64,000 nucleotides of DNA, taken from positions 35,733 to 99,732 of the forward strand of contig DATIJL010000010.1 of the NCBI GenBank assembly GCA_035478595.1. The letters are read 5' to 3'. This document shows, piece by piece, positions 23,022 to 52,716 of the stretch. Every line of letters starts with the position of its first letter. The first letter of the stretch is position 1. A model generated the notes under the pieces. That model was not told the origin of the DNA. It searched no databases and worked only from the letters and a program-made list of their open reading frames with translations. This DNA comes from Candidatus Chromulinivoraceae bacterium (GTDB lineage: Bacteria > Patescibacteriota > Saccharimonadia > Saccharimonadales > Saccharimonadaceae). The position numbers and the translations under genes are program-made.

Positions 23022-23052
23022 GCCATAACCGATGTTGTGGACTATGGGACAG

Positions 23053-23108
23053 GCGGATGGTCTGCGCTCAGGTGTCGTGTAGACTCCATGAGTGCAGATA
23101 CCATCCGC
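23053..23108 (-). terminator. long imperfect hairpin downstream of GC-rich cassette 1 (possible terminator)
   Basis: gcggatggtctgc (23053-23065) pairs with gcagataccatccgc (23094-23108), with one bulge and a 28-nt loop. No clear U-run, so function is uncertain. Confidence 0.3.
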
Positions 23109-23144
23109 GCGCCACGAAATGTGGCAGGCAACACACGTCCTAGG

Positions 23145-23501
23145 TTAGCGACGTGGAGAGACCCATCCGGGGCGAACGACCATCTGGCCACGATCGCCTC
23201 GGGCGATCGTGAGCTTGCGGTACTGGTCGGAGCGGAGGTTGTTTACGCCGATTACGACCAGCGCACAGTGCATGTGGTTGTCGTCACCGGTGTCGGGCAG
23301 AAGGACGACCACGTAGGTCGTCTGGGTGCCCAGGGAGGTGATCTGGACGCGCTGACCCTCTCGCTGTCGCATCCACGTGATGTCGAATGCTGCGTTGGTG
23401 TCGAAGCCGGTCGCTACGAGCTCTTTGAGCCGCGCCTGGGCGGGCTGGATCGCAGCTTGCATGGCTTCCATCATCGGGTCAGGCTGGCCAAAACCGTACA
23501 T
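23145..23501 (-). CDS. hypothetical protein, GC-rich cassette 1 (118 aa)
   Basis: ATG at 23501 lies 7 nt after RBS AAGGAGA. Third codon positions are strongly G/C-biased in this frame by my codon-by-codon read. About 63% GC in a hand-counted block against a 42-50% background. No family recognised. Confidence 0.65.
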   Translation of the reverse strand: MYGFGQPDPMMEAMQAAIQPAQARLKELVATGFDTNAAFDITWMRQREGQRVQITSLGTQTTYVVVLLPDTGDDNHMHCALVVIGVNNLRSDQYRKLTIARGDRGQMVVRPGWVSPRR

Positions 23502-23538
23502 CTCGGAGTCTCCTTTGTCGGGGTGGATTGCCTTTATA

Positions 23539-23567
23539 ACTATAGCATAATATTTATGTTAAGTCAA
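23539..23567 (-). promoter_or_regulatory. sigma70-type promoter for cassette 1 (TTGACT-17-TATAGT)
   Basis: On the minus strand the -35 is ttgact (23567-23562), the spacer is 17 nt and the -10 is tatagt (23544-23539). It lies in AT-rich DNA just outside the GC-rich block. Confidence 0.5.
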
Positions 23568-23607
23568 TTTATAATGGAGGTGGATGATGGATAAATTAAG
23601 CAGTAGC

Positions 23608-23636
23608 TTGTTTTTTCGTTTGATTTGTGCTACAAT
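23608..23636 (+). promoter_or_regulatory. sigma70-type promoter for the DEAD-box helicase gene (TTGTTT-17-TGcTACAAT)
   Basis: -35 ttgttt at 23608-23613, a 17-nt spacer ending in the TGn extended element, and -10 tacaat at 23631-23636. Implies a leader of about 145 nt. Confidence 0.45.
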
Positions 23637-23788
23637 TACAAAATTGCATTCGATGAATGTCGAGCCTCTTTCAAAGTCTGGCCCTTAGTGGGCGGCCACC
23701 GAAATATCATCTCGCTGTTCTCCTGAGACATCTCGTCTCTTTTGACTGCATACAGCTATCAAATTGAATAACGAAAGGGTTATTTCTT

Positions 23789-25009
23789 ATGGCATTTCAA
23801 CAACGACGCGGCGGTCGCCCTAATCAAGGGCGCCCACAAGGCGCAGGACGTAGCTTTGGCGGTGGACATCGCGGTGGAAACCGTGGTCCAGCTAAAAAGT
23901 ACATCCACCCATCAAAATTTATTAATAAGGCAGTCACAAAAGCTGATGAGGTTACTTACGAGCCGACTCATAAATTTGCTGATTTCCCATTCGGCGCTGA
24001 GCTGTTTCACAACATCTCTAAAAAGGGTTATGTATTGCCAAGTGCAATCCAAGACCAGGCTATTCCTCACATCATTGACGGAAAAGACGTTATTGGTCTT
24101 GCAAACACAGGTACTGGTAAAACAGCAGCCTTCCTACTTCCAATTATTGAGCGTCAAAGTGGCATTATGCTACGCCCAAGCGTACTTATTGTCGCACCGA
24201 CACGCGAACTTGCTCAGCAGATCGACGAACAATTTCGCGAATTTGCGCATGGTCTTAACCTTTACTCAACCCTTATTGTGGGTGGAGTAAACATTGATCG
24301 CCAAATCCGTGACCTTAAGCGTCGTCCTCACTTTATTATTGGTACTCCTGGTCGTCTTAAAGACCTTATGCAGCGCCGTGTACTACAACTAAAAAACATG
24401 ACAACACTTGTTTTGGATGAAGCTGATCGTATGCTTGATATGGGCTTTTTGCCTGACATTAAGCAGATTGTGAGTGAAATGCCAAAGGAACGTCAGACAT
24501 TGTTCTTTAGCGCTACAATTACTCCTGAAATTTCAGTCTTAGTGAATGACTTTTTGAATGATCCTGTAACAGTGTCTGTTCGTACAACTGAAACGGCGGA
24601 GCATGTTGAACAAGATGTCATCGAAGTTCGTGACAAGAATGAAAAGCTTGAGGTACTGACCGACATGCTTGGTAAGCCAGAATACGAGAAGGTTCTTGTG
24701 TTTGGTGAAACCAAATTTGGTGTCCAGCGCCTAAGTGATCACCTGGATAACATGGGTATTAGCTCAGTTGCTATCCATGGTAATAAAAACCAGTCGCAGC
24801 GTCAGCGTGCCTTGAAGCAATTTAAGGACGAGCGTGTTCGTGTAATGGTGGCAACAGACGTTGCAGCTCGTGGTCTCGATATTCCAAACGTGACACACGT
24901 CATTAACTTCGACACTCCACAAACCTACGAAGACTACGTTCACCGTATCGGTCGTACTGGCCGTGGTGGCGCATCTGGTCGTGCACATACGTTCATCGAA
25001 CAGCGCTAA
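23789..25009 (+). CDS. DEAD-box ATP-dependent RNA helicase with N-terminal RGG-rich tail
   Basis: 406 aa with Q-motif, ANTGTGKT, VLDEADRMLDMGF, SAT and HRIGRTGRGG. The first ~40 residues are Arg/Gly-rich (RRGGRPNQGRPQGAGRSFGGGHRGGNRG). Confidence 0.9.
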   Translation: MAFQQRRGGRPNQGRPQGAGRSFGGGHRGGNRGPAKKYIHPSKFINKAVTKADEVTYEPTHKFADFPFGAELFHNISKKGYVLPSAIQDQAIPHIIDGKDVIGLANTGTGKTAAFLLPIIERQSGIMLRPSVLIVAPTRELAQQIDEQFREFAHGLNLYSTLIVGGVNIDRQIRDLKRRPHFIIGTPGRLKDLMQRRVLQLKNMTTLVLDEADRMLDMGFLPDIKQIVSEMPKERQTLFFSATITPEISVLVNDFLNDPVTVSVRTTETAEHVEQDVIEVRDKNEKLEVLTDMLGKPEYEKVLVFGETKFGVQRLSDHLDNMGISSVAIHGNKNQSQRQRALKQFKDERVRVMVATDVAARGLDIPNVTHVINFDTPQTYEDYVHRIGRTGRGGASGRAHTFIEQR

Positions 25010-25026
25010 GCTAGTATGAAAATTAT

Positions 25027-25053
25027 AAAATACAGTCCTAAGGGCTGTATTTT
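25027..25053 (+). terminator. intrinsic terminator after helicase gene
   Basis: aaaatacag(t)cc / gggctgtatttt hairpin with one bulge, followed by a T-rich run. Confidence 0.6.
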
Positions 25054-25069
25054 ATTTTTATACCGTCCA

Positions 25070-25098
25070 TTGACATACGACTTTATGGCTTTTACAAT
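25070..25098 (+). promoter_or_regulatory. sigma70-type promoter for cassette 2 (TTGACA-17-TACAAT)
   Basis: ttgaca at 25070-25075, exactly 17 nt of spacer, tacaat at 25093-25098. AT-rich context. RBS ggaga lies 5 nt before GTG 25145. Confidence 0.55.
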
Positions 25099-25144
25099 GG
25101 CAATTTGTCATTGTTCAGGACCTGCGAGTTAACTGGAGATTGAA

Positions 25145-25630
25145 GTGGCTCTTGAAGTCGAACAAGTCCTAGCGGCGGCGCGGGTTGCTCTTCACACAAC
25201 TAGCCGTAGAGTAGCCGCCCGCCAAAGGCGTCCCAATCCGGCGATTGACATGCCTCCGGATAGGCTAGCGGCGCTTTTGGAGCTATGGGCAAGTCAGGAT
25301 GCAGGCGAGCCTAAGGCGTATAGGACGCAAGGGTCGCGCCTCCTACCTCAGCCGAAAGGAACGAGGCTGTATGTGGCCACTGGCGGGATCGTGGAAGAGG
25401 CAATCGACCTCGCGCTTGAGCCAACCGGTAGCCACATCTGGACGGTAGTGAATTGCACCGTTCAGGGCAAAGTGTGCACTATGCTTCTAGGCGCAGTTCG
25501 CCTAGAAAGCGGCGAGTGGTCTGTCTTCAGGCAAGTCGCCGCCAGGTCTGGAGACGGTGTCGTGTTCGAGACAGACCAGCACCGGTATCATAACCGCGTG
25601 AAGCGCTCAAAGCAGCATCGCAGTAGCTGA
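25145..25630 (+). CDS. hypothetical protein, GC-rich cassette 2 (161 aa)
   Basis: Only long ORF in this block. GTG start with an RBS. About 63% GC in a hand-counted block. Arg-rich N- and C-termini, no family recognised. An alternative internal start (MPPDRL) is possible. Confidence 0.6.
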   Translation: MALEVEQVLAAARVALHTTSRRVAARQRRPNPAIDMPPDRLAALLELWASQDAGEPKAYRTQGSRLLPQPKGTRLYVATGGIVEEAIDLALEPTGSHIWTVVNCTVQGKVCTMLLGAVRLESGEWSVFRQVAARSGDGVVFETDQHRYHNRVKRSKQHRSS

Positions 25631-25633
25631 GCG

Positions 25634-25672
25634 ATGAGCATGCCCCGTACTCCAGGTGCGGGGCATGCTCAT
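25634..25672 (+). terminator. GC-rich intrinsic terminator of cassette 2
   Basis: Perfect 14-bp stem atgagcatgccccg / cggggcatgctcat with an 11-nt loop, followed by tttat. Confidence 0.75.
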
Positions 25673-25726
25673 TTTATAGGACTCCTCTAATGACAGTAAG
25701 TATCTTATCATGTAAAATAAATAGAT

Positions 25727-26488
25727 ATGAAAGCAATGGTAGAAGTAAGAGACCTAAAGAAACGATACGGCGACAAACAAGCGGTCGACGGTGTCAGCTT
25801 TACGGTTAAAAAAGGTGAGATATTCGGTATTTTAGGGCCGAATGGTGCCGGTAAGACAACAACGCTTGAAATGATGGAAACGCTTCGTCCTATCGACAGT
25901 GGTACGGTTTTGATTGATGGCGTTGATGTTAAAGAAGATCCACAGCGCATCAAGTATCTTATTGGGGTGCAGCCGCAGTCACCTGCATTCCAGGATAAAA
26001 CAAAGCTAATCGAAGTAGTCGAGATGTTCGCCGCTGCATATGGTGAGCACGTTGATGCAATGCAGTTTTTGCGAGATGTCGAGCTTGAAGAGAAAGCAAA
26101 TAGTTACGTGGAGTCGCTCTCTGGTGGCCAAAAGCAGCGCCTTAGTATTACAACAGCATTAGTGCATGGTCCGAAAGTGTTCTTTTTGGACGAACCAACG
26201 ACAGGATTGGATCCGCAGGCGCGTCGTCACCTTTGGGACTTGATTAAGAAAGTCCGAGACAAGGGGATTAGTGTTATCATGACTACCCACTATATGGACG
26301 AAGCGGAGATCCTCTGTGATCGCATCGCCGTGATGGACAACGGAAAGATTGTTGCAACCGATACGCCGCAGAACCTCATCAAACAGTTACTCGACCGCGG
26401 TTTCTCAAAGAAGCAGCATGTTGAGCAGGCTAATCTTGAGGATGTATTTATTGATCTGACAGGCAAGGAGTTACGCGATGGCCAGTAG
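25727..26488 (+). CDS. ABC transporter ATP-binding protein (ABC-2/DrrA-like)
   Basis: 253 aa with Walker A GPNGAGKTT, signature LSGGQKQRL and Walker B FFLDEPTTGLD. Confidence 0.9.
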   Translation: MKAMVEVRDLKKRYGDKQAVDGVSFTVKKGEIFGILGPNGAGKTTTLEMMETLRPIDSGTVLIDGVDVKEDPQRIKYLIGVQPQSPAFQDKTKLIEVVEMFAAAYGEHVDAMQFLRDVELEEKANSYVESLSGGQKQRLSITTALVHGPKVFFLDEPTTGLDPQARRHLWDLIKKVRDKGISVIMTTHYMDEAEILCDRIAVMDNGKIVATDTPQNLIKQLLDRGFSKKQHVEQANLEDVFIDLTGKELRDGQ

Positions 26489-27605
26489 TAATAGCATGAA
26501 ACGATCACTCTATACAGTGAGGACGTTCGTTAAGATCAACACGCGACGCTTCTTCCGTGATAAGCTAGCGTTGTTCTTTAGCATGGGATTCCCGCTTATT
26601 TTCTTGTTCGTGTTTGGTAGTTTAAATAGCGGTAACAAGAACGTATCGTTCAATGTTGCTGTTATTAATGAGTCAAATAGTAGTTTTGCACAGCAATTTG
26701 TAAAAGATGCTGATAAGAGTAGCGTACTCAAGGTTGATGCGACGATAACAACTCTAGATGCTGCAAAAGATAAGATGAGCCGTTCAGAGCTTGATGCTGC
26801 TATTGTGCTGCCGCAGGATTTTGGAACGGTTAAATCAGGAACTCAGACGCCAACAGGTCAGGCGCAAGTTGTATACACACAGAACAACGAACAATCAGGT
26901 CAGGCGCTTAGTAGTGTGTTGCAGGCGCACTTCCAGCAAATCAATGCTAAGTACGTAACCGTTCAACAGCCCTTTAGTGTCCAGACGCAGATGTTAAACG
27001 AGAAGAGTCTGACGGCCTTTGATTATACATTTGCAGGACTTCTCGGATTCTCAATCATTGGTATGGGTATCTTTGGGCCAGTTAATGTCTTTCCAGAGCT
27101 TAAGAAGATGGGAATCCTTCGTCGTCTTAGCACGACACCACTTAGGGTGTGGCAGTATTTCTTAGCAACGATGGTTGGACAGGCTATTATTGGTTTGATT
27201 TCACTTACCATCATGTTCGTTGTCGCCATTGTCGTGTTTCATCTTCAGGTGGTGGGCAACTACTTTGAGCTGGGAATATTCCTTGTACTTGGTATTATTA
27301 CCATCTTGGGAATTGGTCTAGCGCTTGGTGGTTGGGCGCGCAATGAGCGCCAGGCGGCACCACTATCGAACATCATTGTATTTCCAATGATGTTCCTCTC
27401 TGGTACATTCTTCCCCCGGTTCTTGATGCCAGATTGGCTTCAGCACCTTTCAGGGCTCTTACCGCTCACTCCGATTATTGACGGCATCCGTCTTATCGCA
27501 ACGGAAGGTAAGCACTTTACCGACATCTTACCACAGCTTGGACTTGTTGGCATTTGGATGGTAGTAATTTACTTTATTGCATTCCGCGTATTCCGCTGGG
27601 AATAG
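26478..27605 (+). CDS. ABC-2 type transporter permease
   Basis: 375 aa. One N-terminal TM, a large ~150-aa external loop, then five C-terminal TM helices. Overlaps the ATPase gene by 11 nt. Confidence 0.8.
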   Translation: MASSNSMKRSLYTVRTFVKINTRRFFRDKLALFFSMGFPLIFLFVFGSLNSGNKNVSFNVAVINESNSSFAQQFVKDADKSSVLKVDATITTLDAAKDKMSRSELDAAIVLPQDFGTVKSGTQTPTGQAQVVYTQNNEQSGQALSSVLQAHFQQINAKYVTVQQPFSVQTQMLNEKSLTAFDYTFAGLLGFSIIGMGIFGPVNVFPELKKMGILRRLSTTPLRVWQYFLATMVGQAIIGLISLTIMFVVAIVVFHLQVVGNYFELGIFLVLGIITILGIGLALGGWARNERQAAPLSNIIVFPMMFLSGTFFPRFLMPDWLQHLSGLLPLTPIIDGIRLIATEGKHFTDILPQLGLVGIWMVVIYFIAFRVFRWE

Positions 27606-27622
27606 TATAGATCTCTGACTAT

Positions 27623-27657
27623 AAAGACGCCCATTCTTTGAGGGGCGTCTTTTGTTT
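27623..27657 (+). terminator. intrinsic terminator after ABC transporter operon
   Basis: Stem aaagacgccc / gggcgtcttt with a 10-nt loop, followed by ttttgtttat. Confidence 0.7.
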
Positions 27658-27706
27658 ATACGTGTTAAATGTGTATTTTACCTTTTTCATCGGTTATAAT
27701 AGGACT

Positions 27707-27997
27707 ATGACACAAATTTCTCGTGACGACGTGCAACACCTTGCACAGTTAAGCAGCCTGCACCTTTCTGATAGCGATACTGATGGGTTGCAACAAGATA
27801 TTAGTAATATCCTGCAGTATATCGAGCAACTCGGCGAGCTCGATACGACAGGAGTTGAACCGACTTACCAAGTAACGGATCTAGAGAACGTATGGCGTGA
27901 AGATCAGGTGATCGACGATCATGTAACGCGTGAGCAACTTCTGGCTCTCTCACCAGAGGCTAAAAACAACCAAGTTAAGGTGCCGAAAGTATTATAA
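27707..27997 (+). CDS. gatC: Asp/Glu-tRNA(Asn/Gln) amidotransferase subunit C
   Basis: 96 aa starting MTQISRDDVQHLAQLSSLHLSD, typical GatC. Stop overlaps the gatA start (TAATG). The track start at 27638 adds an implausible hydrophobic extension. Confidence 0.9.
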   Translation: MTQISRDDVQHLAQLSSLHLSDSDTDGLQQDISNILQYIEQLGELDTTGVEPTYQVTDLENVWREDQVIDDHVTREQLLALSPEAKNNQVKVPKVL

Positions 27998-29406
27998 TGA
28001 GTCGAATTGATGTAATTGTAAGCGATATTAAAAGCGGTAAAAAAACCGCTCGTCAACATATTGAAGAAGCACTTCAGAAAGCTCAAGATAATGAAGATTA
28101 TCATGCGCTACTTTCTCTCACAAGAGAGCGGGCGTTAGACCGTGCCGACGATATTGATGCGCGTATTAAGAGCGGCGAAAAGCTCGGTAAGCTTGCTGGT
28201 GTACCGTTTGTCGCAAAAGATAACTTCTTAGCCTTTGGCGCGCCAACGACGGCGGCCAGCAAGATGCTTGAAAACTTCGAGGCACCTCTGCAGGCGACTG
28301 TCATCGAGAAGCTAGAGACCGCAGGTGCTATTTGTATTGGAAAGGCTAATCTTGACGCTTTCGCGCACGGTGGTAGTACAGAAAACTCAGCCTTTGGTGT
28401 TACAAAAAATGCTTACGATAAAACCAAAGTTGCTGGTGGTAGTAGTGGTGGTTCCGCTGTTATAACTGCACTCGATGTCGTACCCTTTGCGCTGGGTAGC
28501 GACACTGGTGGTTCTATCCGTCAGCCTGCGAGCTTTAATGGTGTCGTAGGTGTAAAACCTACCTATGGGATGGTAAGTCGGTATGGAGTTGTTGCAATGG
28601 CAAGCAGTACTGATACAATCGGTTGCTTCACGAAAGAAGTGGCTGATGCTGAGCTGGTTATGGATGTAATGAGTGGTCGTGATTTTAATGATATGACGAC
28701 ACTACCTGACTTTTTTGCACCAGAAGAGGTAAAACCTGCTCAAAAGGTCGGTCTTTTAAAAGAATATATGAGTGACGACGTGGATGAAGTTGTTCGTCAG
28801 CATGTTATAGAATATGTTGAAAAACTTCGTGCAGCAGGCCATACGGTAGAGGAAGTTAGTCTTCCTATGGTTAAGTATGCGCTGGCAATGTACTACATCA
28901 TCGTGCCAGCCGAGGTTACGAGTAACTTGGCTCGTTATGACGGTATTCGATATGGACATCGTGCTGAAGGCGATATGACACTTGCAGAACTCTATGGTAA
29001 AAGCCGTGAAGAAGGGTTTGTGACGGAAAACAAGCGTCGTATCATGATTGGTAGCTATGTTCTTTCGAGTGGCTACTTTGACGCCTACTACCTACAGGCG
29101 CAGAAAGCTCGCACACTGCTTGTAAAAGAATATGATAGGCTATTTTCGCAGTATGATGCACTTGTTGGGCCAACAGCTCCGACACCGGCCTTTGGTATTG
29201 GTGAAAATACGGCCGATCCTGTCAAAATGTATCTCTCGGATATTATGACTGTAGCACCAAGTCTTGCTGGTATTCCTGCTATTAGCGTTCCTGCCGGTGT
29301 AACTGACGACGGTCTGCCTATCGGTGTGCAGCTGATGGGTCCACGTAAAAGTGATGCCGCGCTTCTAGCTCTCGCTCGATCTATGGAGGTAACTAACCGT
29401 GGATAG
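27997..29406 (+). CDS. gatA: Asp/Glu-tRNA(Asn/Gln) amidotransferase subunit A
   Basis: 469 aa with amidase signature GGSSGGSA and GSDTGGSIRQPA. Confidence 0.95.
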   Translation: MSRIDVIVSDIKSGKKTARQHIEEALQKAQDNEDYHALLSLTRERALDRADDIDARIKSGEKLGKLAGVPFVAKDNFLAFGAPTTAASKMLENFEAPLQATVIEKLETAGAICIGKANLDAFAHGGSTENSAFGVTKNAYDKTKVAGGSSGGSAVITALDVVPFALGSDTGGSIRQPASFNGVVGVKPTYGMVSRYGVVAMASSTDTIGCFTKEVADAELVMDVMSGRDFNDMTTLPDFFAPEEVKPAQKVGLLKEYMSDDVDEVVRQHVIEYVEKLRAAGHTVEEVSLPMVKYALAMYYIIVPAEVTSNLARYDGIRYGHRAEGDMTLAELYGKSREEGFVTENKRRIMIGSYVLSSGYFDAYYLQAQKARTLLVKEYDRLFSQYDALVGPTAPTPAFGIGENTADPVKMYLSDIMTVAPSLAGIPAISVPAGVTDDGLPIGVQLMGPRKSDAALLALARSMEVTNRG

Positions 29407-31275: not shown

Positions 31276-31334
31276 ATGATGTCGTAAGGCTTGCCCAAAA
31301 GGTAGGCCTTATGTGTTGTTTTGAGGGCTATACT

Positions 31335-44388: not shown

Positions 44389-44417
44389 CTCGCCTGCCGT
44401 TTTCATAGGCAGGCGAG
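44389..44417 (-). terminator. GC-rich hairpin downstream of the orphan minus-strand gene
   Basis: Perfect 10-bp stem ctcgcctgcc / ggcaggcgag with a 9-nt loop, 4 nt after the stop at 44422. Confidence 0.55.
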
Positions 44418-44421
44418 CGTC

Positions 44422-44748: not shown

Positions 44749-44826
44749 GAAGCACCTCCCAGTGAGTAGGACTTTGCATATAGTGTACTATTCGATTAAT
44801 AATGACAAATTCTGTATACTAGCTGT

Positions 44827-45399: not shown

Positions 45400-45444
45400 A
45401 GGTTGCATACGTGATGAGCCTGCAATTGGTAGTGTTTATTCCCC

Positions 45445-45486
45445 AACCATTCATCCCCGAGCTTTCAAGCTCGGGGATGAATGGTT
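45445..45486. terminator. bidirectional terminator hairpin between rnhB and pepN
   Basis: Perfect 18-bp stem aaccattcatccccgagc / gctcggggatgaatggtt with a 6-nt loop, between convergent genes. Confidence 0.7.
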
Positions 45487-45509
45487 CATTTGCAGCTAGT
45501 TAGTGACTT

Positions 45510-48032
45510 TTAAAGCTTGGCTAAGGCTTCGCGAACAGCTATAGTATCACGCTCAAGAAGAGCAACGCGACCTTCAATTTCGCTTGCTCCGATCGTAATA
45601 ACTCGCGTTAAGGCCGGAATATCCTTCAGTGGGCCAAAGAATGCACGGTATTCGCTTAGTTGTTGCCTTGTCACGAGGGCACTTGCGGCAAAACGTGGGT
45701 AATCATCGTAACTCTTATCACCACCAAACGTCTTTTCGATCCATGACCAGTTGTCGCGCATCCATTGCCACGCCATCACGCGCCCATCACGGTTTCTAAT
45801 AAGCCAGACGAACCAATGTCCTGCGTCTTGCGGACGAACAGTCGAAGCATCTGGAATGAGATCAAGAAGACGCTTTACTACTACTGCGTCGCGGGTAGAC
45901 GTGAGACCATTGGCGATATCTTGTCTAAGATCAGATGATGCAGTAGATCGGTATTGTGTGACGAGCGTATCTATAATACGTTGGCTGTCAGTGTAGCGTA
46001 CCGCGGTGCCAATAATAAGCGCACGAAGTTCGGGGTCGAGCCGGTCAATGGACACGTCAGTGTAAAGCTTTTTGGCTGTTTCTAGTACACTTGGCTCCTG
46101 TGAATAGATCATCATGCCAATGATATTGGCCCGCAGCTTTGTATCGGTCTCAGACTCTGCGTCTTTTACTTCCCAGCCAAGTCGTTCGTATTGGGCGCGG
46201 GCAATTCTACCAGCCAAAGCTCGCAGCTGATCCTCAGCTGTCTTATCGGTCTCAACAAACTTTTTAAGTTCTCCTAGGGCGAGTGAAATGATATCCCAAA
46301 CGGCTTCTGTAGTTTCGTGCTGGTATGCTTCGATAAGAGGGATCAGTGTAGCACTGGAGATGATACCGCCTCGGGCTAGGAGTGTTTGTTCGTGTAGAAG
46401 TTGCAGGCGGTCGAGTGGCGCAAGCTCGCCAGTACGAACCTGTGCGATGAGCTTCGCAAGGAGTTCGTCGTCATATTTTGTGATAAAATGCGCGCTATCG
46501 CCGACGTTAAGACGTAATGTGCTAGCATCCAGGTAATCTACGGTAAGAGTTGGGGTTTCAAGCAAAGCTGGCACCTGTGGGTCCGAAGCATTCAGTGGTA
46601 CTGGCCATATTTTTTGTGTGGGCTCGTGTGGTCCAATAAAGAACTGGTGTTGTGAAAGGGTAATCTTATTGTCAACCACCGTCGCCTCTATCACTGGATA
46701 GCCAGATTGTGAGATCCAGGTATTCATAAGCTTGGTAATGTCTTTGCCGCTCGCCTGTGAGAGCACTGACCATAGATCATTACCTTCGGTGTTGCTATAT
46801 TTGTGAGCAGTGAAATACGCTTTCAGACCAGTCTGGAATGCTTCGTGACCGATATATTGTTGGCACATGCGGAGTAGGCGAGCGCCTTTGGCGTAGACTA
46901 TAGCGCCATCAAATAGTGTGCTTATCTCATCCGGATGGTTAACCTCTACTTGAACTGGCTGCACGCCTTCAAGGCTATCTCGACGGAGGGCAAGAATACT
47001 CTCGGTTGTAGAGAAGTCTAGCCAGATGTTCCAGTCCGGATGAAGAGCGTCCACGGCGATATATTCCATAAGTGTAGCAAAACTTTCGTTGAGCCAGAGG
47101 TTGTTCCACCATTTCATAGTTACAAGATTGCCAAACCATTGGTGGCTTAGCTCATGGGCAACGACCGTTGCGATATAGTGCTTGCTGCTGATGCTTGTTG
47201 TTTCTGGATCGGCCAATAGGGCTACTTCACGATAAGTGATGAGACCCCAGTTTTCCATTGCACCCGAGCTAAAATCTGGTACAGCTACGTGGTCGGATTT
47301 TGGTAGTGGATAGGGTGTATCAAAGTATGTTTCAAAAAAGTCGATGGTTTTTACAGCGTTATCAAGTGCAAAATCAAGACTTGTGGGTTTTTGCGCAGGT
47401 GTAGCCCAAACATTTACTTCAACGCCACGCTTTGTCATGGCAGTCCTTTTGTGTAACTCGCCAGCCATCCAGGCAACTAGATACGAGCTCATCCGAGGGG
47501 TGGTATCAAAAACTGTTATTAAACGGTTGTCTTCTAACTTTTGGCTGTGAACAGGCATGTTCCCGAGTACAATTATATCTGGCTCAGTCGTAAGAGCGAT
47601 GTCGTATGCCGCCTTTGCTTCTGGCTCATCAATACAGGGGAAGACTTCCCGAGCGTGATGGCTCTCGAATTGTGTCATAAGTAATTCTTTTTTAACGCCG
47701 TTATCGTCGTAGTAGCAGGGATAGAGACCGTGTAGAGCATCGGTAATGATACCATCAAATTCGAAGACGACGATATGACGGCCAGGGGCGATGTCAGCGC
47801 GTGTAACTGTTAACTCATCGTTTTCACCTAGACTATATTCAGCTTTTTTACCATCAACCAACACCGAAGTTATGGTCAGATCTTTAGCATGAACAGCAAT
47901 TCCACCAGGTACGGTGCTAATGCCGTTCATTGTGATAATTCCACTAAATGTACGTTCTACTCGCTTTAGGTCGAGGCTAAGTTGATAATGTTCTGGTACG
48001 AATTTTTCTATGAGTCGAGAAACAGTCTGCAT
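45510..48032 (-). CDS. pepN: aminopeptidase N (M1 family)
   Basis: 840 aa with GAMENWG exopeptidase motif and the HELSHQWFGNLVT...WLNESFA zinc site. Confidence 0.9.
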   Translation of the reverse strand: MQTVSRLIEKFVPEHYQLSLDLKRVERTFSGIITMNGISTVPGGIAVHAKDLTITSVLVDGKKAEYSLGENDELTVTRADIAPGRHIVVFEFDGIITDALHGLYPCYYDDNGVKKELLMTQFESHHAREVFPCIDEPEAKAAYDIALTTEPDIIVLGNMPVHSQKLEDNRLITVFDTTPRMSSYLVAWMAGELHKRTAMTKRGVEVNVWATPAQKPTSLDFALDNAVKTIDFFETYFDTPYPLPKSDHVAVPDFSSGAMENWGLITYREVALLADPETTSISSKHYIATVVAHELSHQWFGNLVTMKWWNNLWLNESFATLMEYIAVDALHPDWNIWLDFSTTESILALRRDSLEGVQPVQVEVNHPDEISTLFDGAIVYAKGARLLRMCQQYIGHEAFQTGLKAYFTAHKYSNTEGNDLWSVLSQASGKDITKLMNTWISQSGYPVIEATVVDNKITLSQHQFFIGPHEPTQKIWPVPLNASDPQVPALLETPTLTVDYLDASTLRLNVGDSAHFITKYDDELLAKLIAQVRTGELAPLDRLQLLHEQTLLARGGIISSATLIPLIEAYQHETTEAVWDIISLALGELKKFVETDKTAEDQLRALAGRIARAQYERLGWEVKDAESETDTKLRANIIGMMIYSQEPSVLETAKKLYTDVSIDRLDPELRALIIGTAVRYTDSQRIIDTLVTQYRSTASSDLRQDIANGLTSTRDAVVVKRLLDLIPDASTVRPQDAGHWFVWLIRNRDGRVMAWQWMRDNWSWIEKTFGGDKSYDDYPRFAASALVTRQQLSEYRAFFGPLKDIPALTRVITIGASEIEGRVALLERDTIAVREALAKL

Positions 48033-48156
48033 ATATCTATTGTAACAAAGGTATGCAAAAGATATGAAACGAAAACTACTAGGCTACTGCACGATCAAGA
48101 GTCGTCTAGAGCGATGTATGGTTGTTCTGTTTCTTGTTCGAAACTAAAAGATGCTC

Positions 48157-48192
48157 CAAAAAATAAATATGGCTTCGTGGAGGCGAAGCCAT
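48157..48192 (-). terminator. intrinsic terminator of the hsp20 gene
   Basis: Stem atggcttcg / cgaagccat with a 6-nt loop. On the minus strand it is followed by atttattttttgg. Confidence 0.7.
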
Positions 48193-48205
48193 AGGGCGGA
48201 TGAAT

Positions 48206-48631
48206 TTACTTTTTCTTGGTTTTGACAGTAATCTTTTTAGGTTTGGGAAGTGGCTGAAGTGGTATGGCAACCTTAAGGATACCGTCTTCTAGGTGGGCGA
48301 CTATAGAGTCGCTGTCTGCTCGATCTGGTAGAGAGATACGACGATAAAAACTACTAGAGCTTTCTCGTACGACATATTTTTTGTCTTTGTCGTCCTCTTT
48401 TTCATGCTTTTCAGCCTGAATGATGAGCGAACCATTCTCTACATGTACATCAACGTCGCTTTGGTCGAAGTGCGGTAGATGCGATTCAATAACGAGTTCC
48501 TTATCATTCTTTGTATAGACGTCAGTTGTTGGTATGGTCATACTTTTGGGTGACAACCAATCATCTCCAAAGAACTGTCGCTGCAGTGCGTTAATCTCCG
48601 CAAATGGATCGAACTTTTGTATATTTGTCAT
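48206..48631 (-). CDS. Hsp20/alpha-crystallin small heat-shock protein
   Basis: 141 aa with an alpha-crystallin domain (FYRRISLPDRADSDSIVAHLEDGILKVAIP). Confidence 0.9.
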   Translation of the reverse strand: MTNIQKFDPFAEINALQRQFFGDDWLSPKSMTIPTTDVYTKNDKELVIESHLPHFDQSDVDVHVENGSLIIQAEKHEKEDDKDKKYVVRESSSSFYRRISLPDRADSDSIVAHLEDGILKVAIPLQPLPKPKKITVKTKKK

Positions 48632-48697
48632 ATAATTCTCCTCTCCTTCTTACCCCTTTATTGTAACGCTTATGCTTATGTCCTATCAAGCAAAACT

Positions 48698-48706
48698 TGG
48701 TATAAT
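48698..48706 (+). promoter_or_regulatory. extended -10 element (TGgTATAAT) upstream of the small peptide gene
   Basis: tggtataat at 48698-48706. No convincing -35, which extended -10 promoters tolerate. Confidence 0.35.
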
Positions 48707-48766
48707 AAGGATTGTGGTGTGCACCATCAAATAACCAAATAAATGCTCTTGCAGAGGAGAATATAT

Positions 48767-48841
48767 ATGGGAATGGTAGAAATTGCACTTGGACTGTCAG
48801 TAGTCGCAACGATAACCTGGCACTTCTTCACACAACAATAA
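48767..48841 (+). CDS. 24-aa hydrophobic peptide (unannotated small ORF)
   Basis: RBS gaggag 6 nt before ATG 48767. Product is MGMVEIALGLSVVATITWHFFTQQ, with TAA at 48839-48841 and a hairpin 13 nt downstream. Too short for the ORF track. Confidence 0.4.
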   Translation: MGMVEIALGLSVVATITWHFFTQQ

Positions 48842-48854
48842 ATAGGATATAACT

Positions 48855-48874
48855 GGGCGGCCTAAAGGCCGCCC
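48855..48874 (+). terminator. GC hairpin after the small peptide ORF
   Basis: gggcggcc-taaa-ggccgccc, a perfect 8-bp GC stem, followed by ttgtgg (a weak U tract). Confidence 0.45.
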
Positions 48875-48896
48875 TTGTGGTAAAAAGGAGATTATT

Positions 48897-49076
48897 ATGG
48901 CAAAATATAGTCCAAAATCACAAGAAAAAGTTAAAAAAGCAGTTGAAGAAATGAAAAAGGGCAAGCTTAAAAGCGGTACGAGTGGCAAAAAAGTAACTAG
49001 CCAAAAACAAGCTGTGGCCATCGGGCTCAGTGAAGCTCGTAAAGAGGGTGCAAAAGTGCCTAAAAAGAAATCTTAG
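48897..49076 (+). CDS. small basic protein (DUF6496-like, KQAxAIGLSEAR motif)
   Basis: 59 aa, RBS aaaggag. Product is MAKYSPKSQEKVKKAVEEMKKGKLKSGTSGKKVTSQKQAVAIGLSEARKEGAKVPKKKS. The family name comes from memory of the motif and was not searched. Confidence 0.6.
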   Translation: MAKYSPKSQEKVKKAVEEMKKGKLKSGTSGKKVTSQKQAVAIGLSEARKEGAKVPKKKS

Positions 49077-49090
49077 TTCGTAGGGGGTAT

Positions 49091-49624
49091 ATGACAGATC
49101 TTACAGGCAAACGAATCGCCATTGTGGCAACGGATTATTTTGAAGAATCAGAGCTTGTTGAACCATTAACGCAGCTTCGAGACATGGGAGCCGAGGTAAT
49201 CGTGGCTGCTCCGCATGATGACTTTATACAAGCTTTACGACATGTTGAAATGGGCCGTGAGGTGCCGGTCGATACGACAATCGATAAATTGGATTCATCT
49301 AAATTTGATGCGGTGGTTATCCCGGGTGGGGTAGTAAATGCGGATCATCTTCGGATAGAAAAGGCTGCACAGGAATTTGTGCAGGACATGGCTGATGCGA
49401 GTAAGCCAGTCGCCGCAATATGCCATGGAGCCTGGTTGCTAGTCTCGAGTGGGCTTGTGCGCGGTAGAACGTTGACAAGCTACCATACATTAGCTGACGA
49501 CATAATCAACGCTGGCGGCAAATGGGTAGATCAAGAAGTGGCAGTTGACGGTAAATTTATTACCAGTCGTAAGCCCGACGATATTCCTGCGTTTGTTGCA
49601 GCTATTATAGATGCGTTACGCTAA
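49091..49624 (+). CDS. DJ-1/PfpI family protein
   Basis: 177 aa with the nucleophile-elbow motif AAICHGAWLL and FDAVVIPGG. Confidence 0.9.
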   Translation: MTDLTGKRIAIVATDYFEESELVEPLTQLRDMGAEVIVAAPHDDFIQALRHVEMGREVPVDTTIDKLDSSKFDAVVIPGGVVNADHLRIEKAAQEFVQDMADASKPVAAICHGAWLLVSSGLVRGRTLTSYHTLADDIINAGGKWVDQEVAVDGKFITSRKPDDIPAFVAAIIDALR

Positions 49625-50619
49625 TCGGCGACGGGAGAGTAGCGTCTTTTGCGGCTACGATCAGTTTCGTCTTCGATCTCTTGACCTACGATCTCTTCGA
49701 TAATATCTTCGATCGTAACAATGCCAACAATGCGCTCATCTTTTTCGACGGGAATGAGGTGGGTGCTGGTGGCAATAAACTTGCGAAGCATCGTATCGAG
49801 TGCGGTCTTACTGCCAACTAGACGCACAGGGTGTAGTGTCAGATCATCAACACGGTAGGTTTTTTCATCGAAGTCAACATCGACGAGCTCTTTCATGAGT
49901 AGAACGCCGTAACACTGTGATCTATCTCGATTAAAGATAGGTATACGGCTGCGTCCTGCAGCTTTTATCTCATCGATTTTAGCATCGGTCAAAATAGTAT
50001 CTGGAGTGAGCCAGAACACCTTTTCGATTGGCATCATAATATCACGTACTTTTTTCTCACTTAGTTGCAAAGCCCCCCGGATAATTTCAACCTCATCTTC
50101 ATCGAGTTCGCTTTCTTCGTGACCAAGATGTTCACTGATCATTATGCCAAGTTCACGGCGTGACTGTAGGTGCATAGGTTCTTTTTTAAAAAGACTATCG
50201 AGAAGCAGTTGTAGCGGCTTTGAAACCGGAAAAGTAACCGTAATCATAATATACATAGCCCAACGAAACCTAGCGGTATAAGCGAGAGCGTGGCGGTTAA
50301 AAATAGCCTGGGGCAAAATCTCACCAAAAATGACTGTTGCAAGCGTAGCAATCGCTCCTGCAAAAATACCGTATACGACACTTTCAAGTACAAGTGATGT
50401 GGCGGAAACGGCGGCAACGTTAGTAATGAGGATGGCCGCAAGGGTTAAATGAGTATTGTGACGAAGCGGCAATACATGTTTGGCGTTGAGGTTACCAAGT
50501 TTGGCTTTTCGCTGGAGATCATGAATATCAAGCGACATAAGTGCTACGTTAAGTCCAGAACAAATGGCCGAAAAGCCAATAAGGACAATGACAATTAAAA
50601 CGACAAGAACTATATTCAC
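49621..50619 (-). CDS. CNNM/DUF21 + CBS-pair membrane protein (putative divalent-cation transporter)
   Basis: 332 aa with four N-terminal TM helices (DUF21-like), then tandem CBS motifs. No CorC/HlyC C-terminal domain. Confidence 0.8.
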   Translation of the reverse strand: MNIVLVVLIVIVLIGFSAICSGLNVALMSLDIHDLQRKAKLGNLNAKHVLPLRHNTHLTLAAILITNVAAVSATSLVLESVVYGIFAGAIATLATVIFGEILPQAIFNRHALAYTARFRWAMYIMITVTFPVSKPLQLLLDSLFKKEPMHLQSRRELGIMISEHLGHEESELDEDEVEIIRGALQLSEKKVRDIMMPIEKVFWLTPDTILTDAKIDEIKAAGRSRIPIFNRDRSQCYGVLLMKELVDVDFDEKTYRVDDLTLHPVRLVGSKTALDTMLRKFIATSTHLIPVEKDERIVGIVTIEDIIEEIVGQEIEDETDRSRKRRYSPVAD

Positions 50620-50697
50620 AATGATAAATTAGAGTATGCTTTCAGAGATATTATTGTACTACAGAAGAACGCTGAATACAAGTATATTTTTACGCCG

Positions 50698-50738
50698 GTG
50701 TAGCGCTTCGATCTCCCGGAGGGGTCGAAGCGCTACAC
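50698..50738 (-). terminator. GC-rich hairpin terminator of cassette 3
   Basis: Perfect 14-bp stem gtgtagcgcttcga / tcgaagcgctacac with a 13-nt loop, 10 nt after the stop at 50749. Confidence 0.65.
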
Positions 50739-50748
50739 GCGGCTGACG

Positions 50749-51264
50749 TCAGGACCGGTCGGTGATAGTCCGCTCCTTCTCGCGCAGTGAGACCAACGAT
50801 GCTGCCGTGTTACCGATTGCAGCGCTGACCACGCGGTCGAGTTCGCCCTGTACGCCCGAGCAGGCAGCGACGTTCGGGTCCAGCGAGGTCCGCGAGTCAT
50901 TGTCGAGCTTGGTGGATACGGAGACGTACACGCCACCGGTCCAGCGACCGGGTCCTTCAGGAATCGCCTCGCCGTACTGAGCGAATGCATCATCCGAGTT
51001 CATGCGGTAGGCTGCGGCGGTATTGGCCTTGCCTACGGTGTTGACAGCGAATGCCTCGCCATCACCAACCGTACGCTCGCCCCACTGGACGAACAGGCCG
51101 TCCACGACGGTGCCGACGCGCATGTGCAGCGCATCAGGACCGTTCGGCCCAGCTGTAACTCCGGAGACGTAGAGTGCATGGAACGTGGCCTCACCGACAT
51201 TAAGCGCGATCGTCGCGATCTGCGTGTCGCTGAGAACGGCGAGGTTGAGTGCCGACTCATTCAT
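50749..51264 (-). CDS. hypothetical protein, GC-rich cassette 3 (171 aa)
   Basis: ATG at 51264 (MNESALNLAVL). The track ORF extends to 51351 through AT-rich DNA. About 70% GC in a hand-counted block, with G/C-biased third positions. Any GlcG/DUF336-like resemblance is very tentative. Confidence 0.6.
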   Translation of the reverse strand: MNESALNLAVLSDTQIATIALNVGEATFHALYVSGVTAGPNGPDALHMRVGTVVDGLFVQWGERTVGDGEAFAVNTVGKANTAAAYRMNSDDAFAQYGEAIPEGPGRWTGGVYVSVSTKLDNDSRTSLDPNVAACSGVQGELDRVVSAAIGNTAASLVSLREKERTITDRS

Positions 51265-51394
51265 GATTTTACCCCAGGCTTGTGCGGATGGTACTCTGAC
51301 GTGATTACGGTAGCAGAAAAAATATGAATGTGCAAATTGTAATAGAGCCAACTGTGCGTAGCGTTATAATTAGTAGTATAAGGAGGACGAAATT

Positions 51395-51739
51395 ATGAAT
51401 GCACGTGAATTACGAGACGAGGCAGGCAAAATGCGTACTCGGGCTAAGGCGTCAATTACTGATGCTGAGCTGACGAAAGTAACTGCTTCCGGCTATCAAG
51501 AGAGGGGTAGCGAAGATGAAGCGCGAATTCAGTATGATCGCGTGGTGCAGTTAGAAGAAGAGGCGCGTCACCTAGAGCAACAGGCACAGCAGGCCGAGGA
51601 AGAGGCACTGCAAAAAGAGCGTGAGGCGGCTAATATTGAACGACAACAAGAACAGGTGAAGCGAGATGCGCAGACGCAAATTGATGATCTTGAAAAACAA
51701 AAGAGAAATCTTAGGGGAGGCCCGATCGGGTTATTCTAG
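51395..51739 (+). CDS. coiled-coil protein, unknown function
   Basis: 114 aa, E/Q/R/A-rich heptad-like sequence, RBS aaggagg. Normal composition for this window. Confidence 0.6.
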   Translation: MNARELRDEAGKMRTRAKASITDAELTKVTASGYQERGSEDEARIQYDRVVQLEEEARHLEQQAQQAEEEALQKEREAANIERQQEQVKRDAQTQIDDLEKQKRNLRGGPIGLF

Positions 51740-51745
51740 CGGCTC

Positions 51746-52312
51746 ATGGATTTTTCTTTTCTTGAAGGATCGGCAAGCGAAGTCGCACCTTTACTACTTG
51801 GGTGTATGCTTGAGCGCCAGCTTGACGGCCAGATTGTGCGTGTGCGAATTGTCGAGACCGAAAGCTATGACCAAACAGATGCGGCTAGTCACAGCTATAA
51901 GGGCAAGACTCCTCGGACAGATGTTATGTTTGGGCCGGCTGGTCATTTGTACGTATATTTTACCTACGGCATGCATTATTGCTGTAATGTAACGGTTGGT
52001 TCGGAGGGGATTGGAGCTGCAGTGCTTATTAGGGCGGTTGAGCCCCTCAAGGGTGAGGATCTATTGTCTGTCTATAGGAGTGGAAAGCAGGGAGTAGAAA
52101 TCTCAAACGGGCCAGCCAAGCTATGCAAGGCGCTTGCAATCAATAAAGCAATGAATGGCCATAATCTTCGGCAGGCTCCACTAAAGCTTGTTTCTCAGCC
52201 ACCGCTCTTAGAAGACCAGCTTATAACGACAACACGTATTGGCGTTAGCCAAGCAAAAGATAAGCCGTGGCGGTTTTATATTAAGGACAATCCCTATGTG
52301 TCTCGTTGCTAA
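51746..52312 (+). CDS. mpg: DNA-3-methyladenine glycosylase (Mpg/AAG family)
   Basis: 188 aa. RIVETESYDQTDAASHSYKGKTPRTDVMFGPAGHLYVYFTYGMHYCCNV matches the Mpg core. Confidence 0.9.
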   Translation: MDFSFLEGSASEVAPLLLGCMLERQLDGQIVRVRIVETESYDQTDAASHSYKGKTPRTDVMFGPAGHLYVYFTYGMHYCCNVTVGSEGIGAAVLIRAVEPLKGEDLLSVYRSGKQGVEISNGPAKLCKALAINKAMNGHNLRQAPLKLVSQPPLLEDQLITTTRIGVSQAKDKPWRFYIKDNPYVSRC

Positions 52313-52330
52313 AATTACAACGAAGTGTGA

Positions 52331-52359
52331 TTGACGTCACAGACAAGCAAGAGTATCAT
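52331..52359 (+). promoter_or_regulatory. sigma70-type promoter for cassette 4 (TTGACG-17-TATCAT)
   Basis: ttgacg at 52331-52336, a 17-nt spacer, tatcat at 52354-52359. The -35 overlaps the 8-bp palindrome tgacgtca. Confidence 0.5.
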
Positions 52360-52432
52360 CATTTCTTAGCACCACGTCAAGTGACTGCCGCGAGCGGTAG
52401 TCTCGACCCTTGTGACACGGAGGCCGACAGCC

Positions 52433-52600
52433 ATGTCTCACCCCACGCCCGAGAGCCAGAGCCAACCCCCAGTTCCGTCCCAGCCTCCGGCCAGCCAGTC
52501 GGAGCGTCCTTCGCTGTCACGGGGAATACAGCGCAGAGAAGCGCTGTACACCCAGGCGGACGCTCAGCGTGCACTGGGCTTTCGCGGCCGCATGATCTGA
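52433..52600 (+). CDS. small P/S/Q-rich protein, GC-rich cassette 4 (55 aa)
   Basis: ATG lies 9 nt after RBS ggagg. Product is MSHPTPESQSQPPVPSQPPASQSERPSLSRGIQRREALYTQADAQRALGFRGRMI. About 73% GC in a hand-counted block. A second frame (52306-52635) has similar GC3, so the coding frame is not secure. Confidence 0.4.
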   Translation: MSHPTPESQSQPPVPSQPPASQSERPSLSRGIQRREALYTQADAQRALGFRGRMI

Positions 52601-52618
52601 TTATTCAGGTGTCGCGCC

Positions 52619-52659
52619 GCCGTCACTCCCTCTAGCTACTAGCTGAAGGGAGTGACGGC
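52619..52659 (+). terminator. GC-rich hairpin ending cassette 4
   Basis: Perfect 13-bp stem gccgtcactccct / agggagtgacggc with a 15-nt loop. No U-run. Confidence 0.55.
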
Positions 52660-52716
52660 TGCGCATAGAATTTGCTTGCAATACAATAAATCTCGCGTAT
52701 ACTATAGATAGTACAT

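Follow-up and report, generated by a model that had tools for sequence, protein, structure and literature searches.

How do short stretches of markedly GC-rich DNA, each carrying a single small gene, come to lie between the housekeeping operons of a bacterium of much lower guanine-plus-cytosine (GC) content? The question is raised by a 64,000-nucleotide stretch (hereafter the window) of contig DATIJL010000010.1 (assembly GCA_035478595.1, positions 35,733 to 99,732 of the forward strand), which belongs to a metagenome-assembled genome (MAG) labelled Candidatus Chromulinivoraceae at NCBI. A preliminary description of this DNA had pointed out four such blocks and suggested that they were foreign cassettes captured from the high-GC Actinomycetota on which cultivated Saccharibacteria live. 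We find that the blocks are real and that each holds one protein-coding gene, here termed C1 to C4, under purifying selection. Concerning their origin, the reading that we favour, with moderate confidence, is that C1-C4 are accessory genes native to the clade. Related lineages would swap their alleles through homologous recombination, and the genes would keep the composition of their pool, about 60-68% GC.

The window was scanned for GC content in sliding intervals of 150 nucleotides (mean 45.9%, standard deviation (SD) 5.0), and exactly four segments exceed the mean by more than 2.5 SD. These are block 1 at 23031-23540 (minus strand, 60.6% GC), block 2 at 25121-25680 (58.6%), block 3 at 50681-51260 (62.2%) and block 4 at 52331-52680 (60.3%). 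The seven hand counts over 60 nucleotides given earlier (38, 38, 42 and 44 in the blocks, 30, 25 and 28 in neighbouring genes) are all exact, and the deviant composition of the four blocks is borne out by GC, by third-codon-position GC (GC3), by codon usage and by tetranucleotide statistics. Native genes have a GC3 of 0.414±0.043 with a maximum of 0.53 (n=60); C1, C2, C3 and C4 reach 0.77, 0.60, 0.73 and 0.70, respectively, which corresponds to z-scores of +4.5 to +8.4. The third-position bias had been noticed in C1, C3 and C4 and is indeed present there, but it is not limited to them, since C2 is biased too. GC3 exceeds first-position GC (GC1), which exceeds second-position GC (GC2), in C1 and C3; in C2, GC1 is higher than GC3. 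A score resembling the codon adaptation index places the four genes 2.5-3.6 SD below native genes (z -2.5 to -3.6), and by tetranucleotide distance C3 (z 7.0) and C1 (z 4.7) are the strongest outliers of the window.

Each block was said to hold one open reading frame (ORF), and each does contain one credible small gene. C1 (23145-23501, minus strand; HSW77637.1) encodes 118 amino acids behind an AGGAG ribosome-binding site. C2 (25145-25630, plus strand; HSW77639.1) starts with GTG and encodes 161 residues, C3 (50749-51264, minus strand; HSW77666.1) encodes 171 residues, and C4 (52433-52600, plus strand), which is not called in the public annotation, encodes 55. Longer overlapping ORFs in the blocks are by-products of GC-richness. 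One of them, at 23037-23594 on the plus strand (185 amino acids), runs antisense to C1 and is longer than it; its GC3 is 0.60 versus 0.77 for C1, it lacks a coding-type GC3 pattern, and it had no Pfam match, protein collections not having been searched with it. This ORF is probably spurious, a product of the high GC content that could mislead gene callers. The three near-consensus promoters described before were all found, with 10-11 of 12 matches: a TG-extended TTGACT-17-TATAGT upstream of C1 (23539-23567, minus strand, 10/12), TTGACA-17-TACAAT upstream of C2 (25070-25098, plus strand, 11/12) and TTGACG-17-TATCAT upstream of C4 (52331-52359, plus strand), the last conserved in three related loci (L004, L006 and L007; loci with relatives of these genes are numbered in this way throughout). 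The statement that every block ends in a perfect GC-rich hairpin had to be narrowed. Hairpins follow C2 (25634-25672, plus strand; 17-nucleotide arms, 94% complementary, followed by TTTTA), C3 (50698-50738, minus strand; 14-nucleotide arms and a 13-nucleotide loop) and C4 (52614-52664, plus strand; 25-nucleotide arms, 88% complementary). Only that of C3 is perfect, there is none after C1, and none has a U-tract, including on the coding strand of C3.

A GC-rich island with a promoter and a hairpin in a genome of lower GC content is also what a structured RNA gene typically looks like, and high GC yields long spurious ORFs such as 23037-23594. We therefore weighed whether the blocks could be structured non-coding RNA genes, or artefacts of assembly or contamination with spurious ORFs. 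The C4 transcript folds more stably than dinucleotide shuffles (z -5.1), as this would have it. However, Rfam returned no family at the gathering threshold across the window or at E up to 1 in the blocks, the single weak signal being the C4 terminator hairpin. Alignments of homologues show protein-like conservation, with divergence specific to the reading frame, a ratio of nonsynonymous (dN) to synonymous (dS) divergence of about 0.1-0.2, and indels in frame. Even for the short C4, the substitutions across L004, L006 and L007 are mostly at third positions, the only indel is of 6 nucleotides and in frame, and a gene of 53 amino acids is called at this position in L004, L005 and L007. The stem of the C4 terminator carries compensatory changes in L006 and L007, and the protein model of C3 is confident (see below). 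The view of each block as a self-contained expression unit with one real protein-coding gene is thus upheld. A chimeric assembly, too, had been considered; the same junctions recur in many independent assemblies (Logan, JGI and ENA), so the blocks are not chimeric. For practical purposes, then, the explanation by RNA genes or artefacts is refuted.

Where do relatives of these genes occur? Homologues were sought in 5.8 billion protein clusters, 1.84 billion representatives, GTDB genomes, JGI metagenomes, phages, plasmids and IMG/VR. About 25 relatives were found for C1, nine for C2 and eleven for C3 (among 1.8-5.8 billion proteins). All relatives of C1-C4 come either from small-genome contigs that belong to this lineage or from MAGs with a Saccharibacteria label, and every meaningfully labelled relative of the C1 and C3 families is a Candidatus Saccharibacteria. 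Three of the four genes sit at fixed junctions. C2 homologues (56-96% identity) occupy the slot between the helicase and ABC transporter genes in every related genome examined (L001, L002, L011-13, L015 and L020), C3 adjoins the CNNM gene in L004, L006, L007 and L016, and C4, at 62-71% identity by tblastn, recurs beside NusA or mpg in L004-L007. More distant C3 homologues (31-35% identity) are found in further small genomes, of which two carry a Saccharibacteria label. That C2, C3 and C4 are found at the same junctions in nearly all relatives examined indicates that they are long-resident and not wedged in, as they had first been described. The comparison of junctions proposed earlier did reveal presence/absence for C1, which is found in L003 and is absent from the close strains L001, L011, L012, L015 and L020, where a clean intergenic gap of 210-265 nucleotides stands instead.

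These distributions bear directly on the idea that the genes were captured from high-GC actinobacterial hosts, perhaps anciently, and then spread among Saccharibacteria. Several features would suit such an origin: GC3 values of 0.77-0.96 in family members, a preference for C-ending codons typical of high-GC organisms, hairpin terminators lacking U-tracts, a distant C3 homologue whose neighbours include a WhiB-domain gene and a large serine recombinase, and the resemblance of C3 to HbpS-type proteins, which are known from Streptomyces. But none of the searches of clusters, representatives, GTDB or JGI returned a C1-C4 homologue in a demonstrably actinobacterial genome, although soil Actinomycetota are presumably heavily sampled there. 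The contig with the WhiB gene reaches just 47% GC, the relatives that carry a label are all Saccharibacteria, and synteny across the clade is seen for three of the four genes. Cultivated Saccharibacteria do live on Actinobacteria and take up DNA (PMC11665869); across Patescibacteria, however, about 83% of the transfers detected stay within the phylum, and Actinomycetota are reported to be donors only rarely (PMC12455944). Recent capture from such hosts is thus not supported, and we regard an actinobacterial source at any depth as improbable. The preliminary description had also reasoned that vertical inheritance among low-GC relatives, with no affinity to high-GC lineages, would speak against foreignness; as regards other phyla this is largely what was found, but an affinity does exist to higher-GC members of the same clade.

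That affinity is seen in L028, of which positions 1-9092 are syntenic with 16558-25009 of the window. Its housekeeping proteins are 83-90% identical to those of the window (UvrB 90%, helicase 89%, LDcluster4 87%) and stand in the same gene order, at about 57% GC and with a housekeeping GC3 of 0.61-0.74. Genomic GC has thus shifted by more than 10 points within a narrow clade (about 57% in L028 versus 46%, with a GC3 of 0.41, in the window). Two further genomes with C1-family genes, L024 and L026, are at about 60% GC, and L024 is close to a 1.29 Mb genome labelled Saccharibacteria. When synonymous-codon models were compared, C1, C3 and C4 fitted the native genes of higher-GC relatives better by +0.25 to +0.34 bits per codon; the corresponding values are -0.33 to -0.44 for native genes of the window and -0.13 for C2. 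In their deviation from the resident genome, all codon classes of C1-C4 are GC-shifted and C-ending codons are preferred. In every locus the homologues form GC-rich islands, including C3 homologues of only 31-35% identity in genomes of 42-47% GC. Because these deep homologues are still islands, GC-richness is a stable property of the families and not a mark of recent arrival. Across 19 instances the background ranges from 0.42 to 0.61 and the island from 0.58 to 0.69 (slope 0.35, r 0.65, p 0.003). An early reading, of a constant offset of +0.15 GC, was replaced once these 19 points gave a nearly constant island GC. The home composition of the C1-C4 families is about 60-68% GC. Further GC-rich orphan genes (GC3 0.9-0.96), not homologous to C1-C4, were observed on related contigs (L014 11971-12440; L030 791-1147 and 7868-8095; L018 4591-4840; L024 5132-5806; L026 5229-5675 and 9225-11771), and such orphans look like a general feature of these genomes and not a peculiarity of four genes.

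We next consider how the alleles are related, and here the cassettes conflict with their flanks. Between the window and L003, C1 is 90.6% identical at the protein level (dN 0.047, dS 0.40), while the adjoining EEP-family nuclease (57% identical) and uvrB are saturated at silent sites; for these GC-rich genes saturation lies at or below 44% third-position identity, as shown by C2 between the window and L015. The promoter-like site of C1 is kept along with the cassette in L003. For C3, any two of the alleles in the window, L004 and L016 share 78-81% identity, with flanking proteins of the window and L004 at 98-100%. C2 differs by 4-21% among genomes with 100% identical helicase and ABC proteins (dN 0.10 and dS 0.93 between the window and L011). 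The dS of the cassette-adjacent CNNM and ABC genes is above that of genes further off, and at cassette 1 a breakpoint separates 91% identity upstream from 98.9% downstream when the window is compared with L001. Amelioration has gone furthest in C2 (GC3 0.60, -0.13 bits per codon), which is also the cassette with the least sign of recent exchange in this sub-lineage.

The favoured reading would account for these observations as follows. The four would be independent monocistronic genes for small, soluble, fast-evolving proteins, of families restricted to a lineage of ultra-small bacteria. They would form a long-standing accessory pool of the clade, held in fixed intergenic slots (EEP|helicase, helicase|ABC, CNNM|coiled-coil-mpg and mpg|NusA), where alleles would be repeatedly replaced, lost and regained through homologous recombination with related lineages, the conserved flanks possibly serving as homology arms. 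With clade genomes ranging from about 42% to about 61% GC, the families would show as partly ameliorated GC-rich islets in a resident of 46% GC. Natural competence is documented for cultivated Saccharibacteria, incoming DNA being integrated through homologous recombination (PMC11665869). Coding capacity, purifying selection, synteny across relatives, the presence/absence of C1, the conflict of alleles with their flanks, the occurrence of the same families in close relatives of higher GC and the fit of C1, C3 and C4 codon usage to those relatives are observed; recombination or transformation as the mechanism, the direction of transfer and the functions of the genes are inferred.

Such units resemble the strain-variable genomic islets that naturally transformable bacteria exchange through homologous recombination: they are small and lie at fixed positions between conserved core genes, one of them (C1) shows presence/absence polymorphism, their alleles are incongruent with the flanks, breakpoints fall in the flanking core genes, and no integrase or transposase is involved. 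Two differences stand out. Bacterial accessory DNA is usually richer in AT than the core, but the units described here are GC-richer than the core by 13-17 points, and this excess persists over deep divergence and across residents of very different GC content. The kind of system, accessory genes exchanged by transformation, is already known, and the unusual part is the compositional persistence.

Single-gene units that end in hairpins, one of them present in some strains and absent from others and two bracketed by weak direct repeats, could alternatively be the cargo of mobile elements (integron-like cassettes, miniature transposons or prophage remnants) that insert single genes with a 3' hairpin site. 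The earlier statement that no direct repeats flank the blocks was not quite right, as two exist: ATAACTATTCCATAA and ATAACTATAGCATAA at 23007-23021 and 23536-23550 around C1 (13/15), and TTGCTAAAA at 52306-52314 and 52739-52747 around C4 plus the NusA promoter (9/9). Both, however, are within chance, and L003 preserves the C1 pair only poorly. As stated before, the window has no tRNA gene (ARAGORN), and neither an integrase nor a transposase is found among the Pfam-annotated syntenic relatives. No DNA motif or core site is common to the four blocks (46 shared 9-mers against 35±11 by chance), and no terminal inverted repeats were found. They have promoters of their own (near-consensus for three), and occupancy goes by fixed slot, not by variable insertion sites. 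Searches for a phage, plasmid or viral origin by tblastn against INPHARED and PLSDB, in four IMG/VR scans and in PHROGs and PADLOC found nothing, the sole hit being an unannotated gut contig at E 2e-3 and 27% identity. With integron cassettes in particular the units share a single ORF followed by an imperfect inverted repeat, but they are dispersed and not arrayed, carry their own promoters, come without IntI and have hairpins without a shared attC-like core. We consider mobile cargo very improbable.

Exchange within the clade does not by itself explain all of the data, and several points weigh against it as the full account. Even in genomes of 57-61% GC, the families and neighbouring orphans are GC-richer than their surroundings (GC3 0.86-0.96 versus about 0.7 for housekeeping genes); no sampled genome is thus a fully matching source, so that some force raising GC, or a richer pool outside the genomes sampled, has to be invoked as well. 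Simple amelioration predicts that the 31-35%-identical C3 homologues in genomes of 42-47% GC should have equilibrated, unless exchange is continual, yet they are still islands. The EEP gene is equally hypervariable and recombining, yet native in composition. The searches turned up no donor allele near those of the window except, for C1, that of L003. Finally, what is said of function relies on a single predicted fold that sequence comparison does not back, and the assignment of the window to Saccharibacteria is indirect, its NCBI label being Chromulinivoraceae.

These difficulties lend some weight to a process intrinsic to the genome that would raise the GC content of vertically inherited genes without any foreign source, either GC-biased gene conversion (gBGC) at recombination hot spots or selection for GC or mRNA stability. 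The GC excess in every genome examined, including the 31-35%-identity homologues and the genomes of 57-61% GC, the correlation of island with background GC (r 0.65, p 0.003), the shift of all codon classes, as a compositional force would produce, and the recombination signatures at the slots are all in keeping with it, and an established hypothesis holds that gBGC raises GC3 in bacterial genes that recombine (PMC4450053). On the other hand, the EEP gene, which recombines and varies just as much, has a native GC3 of 0.48. The increase to be explained, a GC3 of +0.2 to +0.35, is also far above the effects described for gBGC in bacteria. Concerning mRNA stability, the C2 mRNA is more stably folded than 50 synonymous-codon shuffles (z -3.4), outside the native range of +1.2 to -2.8, and may be under RNA-level constraint within its coding sequence; C1 (z -1.2), C3 (-0.5) and C4 (-1.5) lie inside that range, and selection for mRNA structure was rejected as a general cause. 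Translational selection was likewise rejected: all codon classes are GC-shifted, while L19, HSP20 and NusA, which are likely highly expressed, have low four-fold GC, so that such selection runs the opposite way. We regard a purely intrinsic force as a less likely explanation, but one to be taken seriously. Candidate causes of the persistent GC-richness are thus gBGC, selection and a richer pool beyond the genomes sampled. More speculatively, exchange and a compositional force could act together: a phylum-internal pool of small, fast-evolving genes might stay at about 60-68% GC in any resident (42-61%), be swapped by transformation at fixed slots without an integrase, and have its GC content actively maintained by biased gene conversion or selection. 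This combined proposal we put forward only tentatively.

Which organism does the window come from? The labels conflict: its own MAG is Candidatus Chromulinivoraceae (Babelota) at NCBI and that of L016 is Verrucomicrobiia, while relatives in the same gene families (L017 and L019 among the loci concerned) are labelled Candidatus Saccharibacteria. L016 is close to the window (NusA 93% identical), and the Chromulinivoraceae and Verrucomicrobiia labels of the soil-MAG catalogue look unreliable. The preliminary description had supposed a Saccharibacterium; from the GC content and the labels on C1- and C3-family relatives, this is probable. G1 Saccharibacteria have 47±3% GC and high synteny (PMC7427843), and the match of the window to this value points to Saccharibacteria. 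Housekeeping genes shared with labelled loci overlap too little to confirm the lineage; comparisons of neighbouring genes gave no taxonomic placement of L014 and L008 (TyrRS 29% identical).

What might the proteins do? None of the four could at first be assigned to a named family, and for C1, C2 and C4 the searches were again negative. For C3, which carries the motifs IPEGPxRWTGG and SGVQGE.D, the AlphaFold2 (AF2) model is confident (pLDDT 88, pTM 0.86), and its top 19 Foldseek matches in the PDB are all of DUF336 type (E from 2e-4, probability 1.0, TM 0.5-0.7). Among them are 4nkp (putative haem-binding), 2a2l (ORFY), 6bws (the formaldehyde sensor EfgA), 9jth (NahX), 5cx7 (PduO-C with haem) and 4clc (Ybr137w). 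Pfam gave no match for C3 and 12 family members even at E up to 0.1, NCBIfam gave none for C3, a C3 profile found nothing among PDB sequences, and hhalign of that profile against the PF03928 protein of L026 was insignificant (probability 0.2%). C3 is thus predicted to have a GlcG/HbpS/EfgA-like (DUF336) fold and is not filed as a member of the PF03928 family ('HbpS-like'). To this group, which includes PduO-C, it is likened by the predicted fold (TM up to 0.69), by a similar size (about 140-170 amino acids) and by conserved Gly-rich loops (GGV, SGVQG) placed analogously to the ligand-site loops of the family; furthermore, a bona fide PF03928 gene adjoins a C1-family gene in L026. It differs in having no sequence-profile match, and whereas HbpS adjoins a sensor kinase (SenS/SenR), no such kinase lies beside C3 in the window. 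Judging from the model, C3 would most likely act as a sensor or chaperone of the GlcG/HbpS/EfgA type that forms oligomers and binds haem or a small ligand.

In other genomes, C3-like genes were seen to adjoin a PAS kinase (L017), HSP20 (L018) and a WhiB-domain gene (L008). In L008 (1609-9507; also L009 and L010), a 31%-identical C3 homologue lies directly upstream of a gene for a 239-residue protein with a C-terminal WhiB domain and downstream of a block of orphan genes that starts with a large serine recombinase, on a contig of 47% GC. This locus may be an integrated element that carries WhiB in a non-actinobacterial genome. From such neighbours in other genomes (HSP20, PAS histidine kinases, ECF sigma factors and WhiB), our guess is a role in sensing stress or the host.

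C1 appeared to be an orphan in a word-indexed search; exhaustive HMMER searches then revealed its roughly 25 full-length relatives of 110-130 amino acids with the motifs TGF.T..[FY]D, SL.T.T.Y and PGW. The notion of C1 as a new insertion was softened by a C1-family gene, 45% identical, that already lies in the same slot in L028 within the same PfkB...UvrB-EEP synteny. C1 is truly strain-variable and recently exchanged, yet its family is already present at this slot in a more distant relative. C1 had no match in Pfam, PADLOC, PHROGs or the PDB, profile search included, and an assignment to YbaB/EbfC (PF02575) was rejected, as it was below threshold and seen in one of 23 members (E 0.049, 14 bits against a cut-off of 25.5). 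In L026 (6001-7232) a C1-family gene adjoins a DUF2277 gene and the Pfam-recognised HbpS-like gene, with an ECF sigma factor and a PAS histidine kinase nearby, a neighbourhood that suggests a functional link of C1-type with GlcG/HbpS-type proteins. Two C1-family paralogues stand in tandem in L024 (6001-6936).

For C2, the AF2 model is of moderate confidence (pLDDT 75) and shows two helices, a beta-sheet and a basic C-terminal helix; it has no significant fold match in the PDB or BFVD (viral), and the C2 profile had no match among PDB sequences. The C4 protein has an N-terminus rich in P, Q and S and a conserved C-terminal helix (...ALGFRGR[ML]I). An ultra-conserved segment comprises the C4 leader and the first nine codons (52360-52459, plus strand). 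It is 92-95% identical to its counterparts in L004 (9883-10010), L006 (6822-6916) and L007 (223-317), against 61-74% for the remaining coding sequence and about 70% for the flanking genes. The segment includes a GGAGG ribosome-binding site, GTGAC/GTCAC palindromic motifs and an 8-bp hairpin (GACUGCCG...CGGUAGUC), whose pairing is kept through G-U to G-C and loop changes. It occurs in a single copy per genome, has no Rfam match and may be a regulatory RNA element or an operator.

The genes around the slots were named correctly in the preliminary description (EEP nuclease, DEAD-box helicase, CNNM, coiled-coil protein, MPG and NusA). The gene for the EEP-family nuclease (22182-23021, plus strand) is hypervariable, at 44-87% amino acid identity where its neighbours have 90-100%, and is not GC-rich; in L028 it is apparently split into two ORFs. 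A GmrSD-type restriction gene lies between uvrB and EEP in L011 (5755-7533), in L012 (199-1977) and, by protein coordinates, in L020. The whole stretch from uvrB to ABC is a variable hot spot. Within it the conserved DEAD-box helicase (23789-25009, plus strand) would form a homology arm between slots 1 and 2. The CNNM/CBS transporter gene that adjoins C3 (49621-50619, minus strand) has a raised dS of 0.90 versus L004, which suggests that a recombination tract reaches into it. Between C3 and C4 lie the coiled-coil gene and mpg (51395-52312, plus strand); both are missing in L004 (89% DNA identity to the window), which lacks the equivalent of 51322-52309, so that C4 and C3 are adjacent and divergent there. 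In L016 (2730-4940) the C4 slot holds an ORF of 736 amino acids that resembles a beta-helix or tail-fibre protein. The window also encodes a PilB-type ATPase (T2SSE by Pfam in the annotation of L004).

With classical horizontally acquired islands, the four blocks share deviations in GC, GC3, codon usage and tetranucleotides with sharp boundaries. They are, however, single genes of 350-580 nucleotides, with no mobility genes, no tRNA target and no direct repeats beyond chance; all but one are conserved in synteny throughout the clade, and the relatives belong to the same phylum. A foreign composition is commonly taken as a sign of recent transfer, and of host-to-symbiont capture in ultra-small episymbionts; here that signal is real but misleading, and the source of the GC-rich genes, if there is one, lies within the same phylum. 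Outliers of GC or GC3 in Patescibacteria should thus not be taken as host-derived by default, and the taxonomy and synteny of homologues should be checked first. Genome GC moves by more than 10 points between relatives with about 90% identical housekeeping proteins, and orphan small-protein families that stay GC-rich across this whole range are the opposite of the usual AT-rich accessory genome. If true, an actively maintained GC-rich pool would invert the usual rule that accessory DNA is the AT-richer part. The families that stay GC-rich in this way provide a natural setting in which to tell amelioration apart from biased gene conversion and from selection on base composition. The four families themselves, one with a predicted GlcG/HbpS-like sensor fold and one with an ultra-conserved mRNA leader, may be part of the lineage-specific biology of these episymbionts, which is poorly understood.

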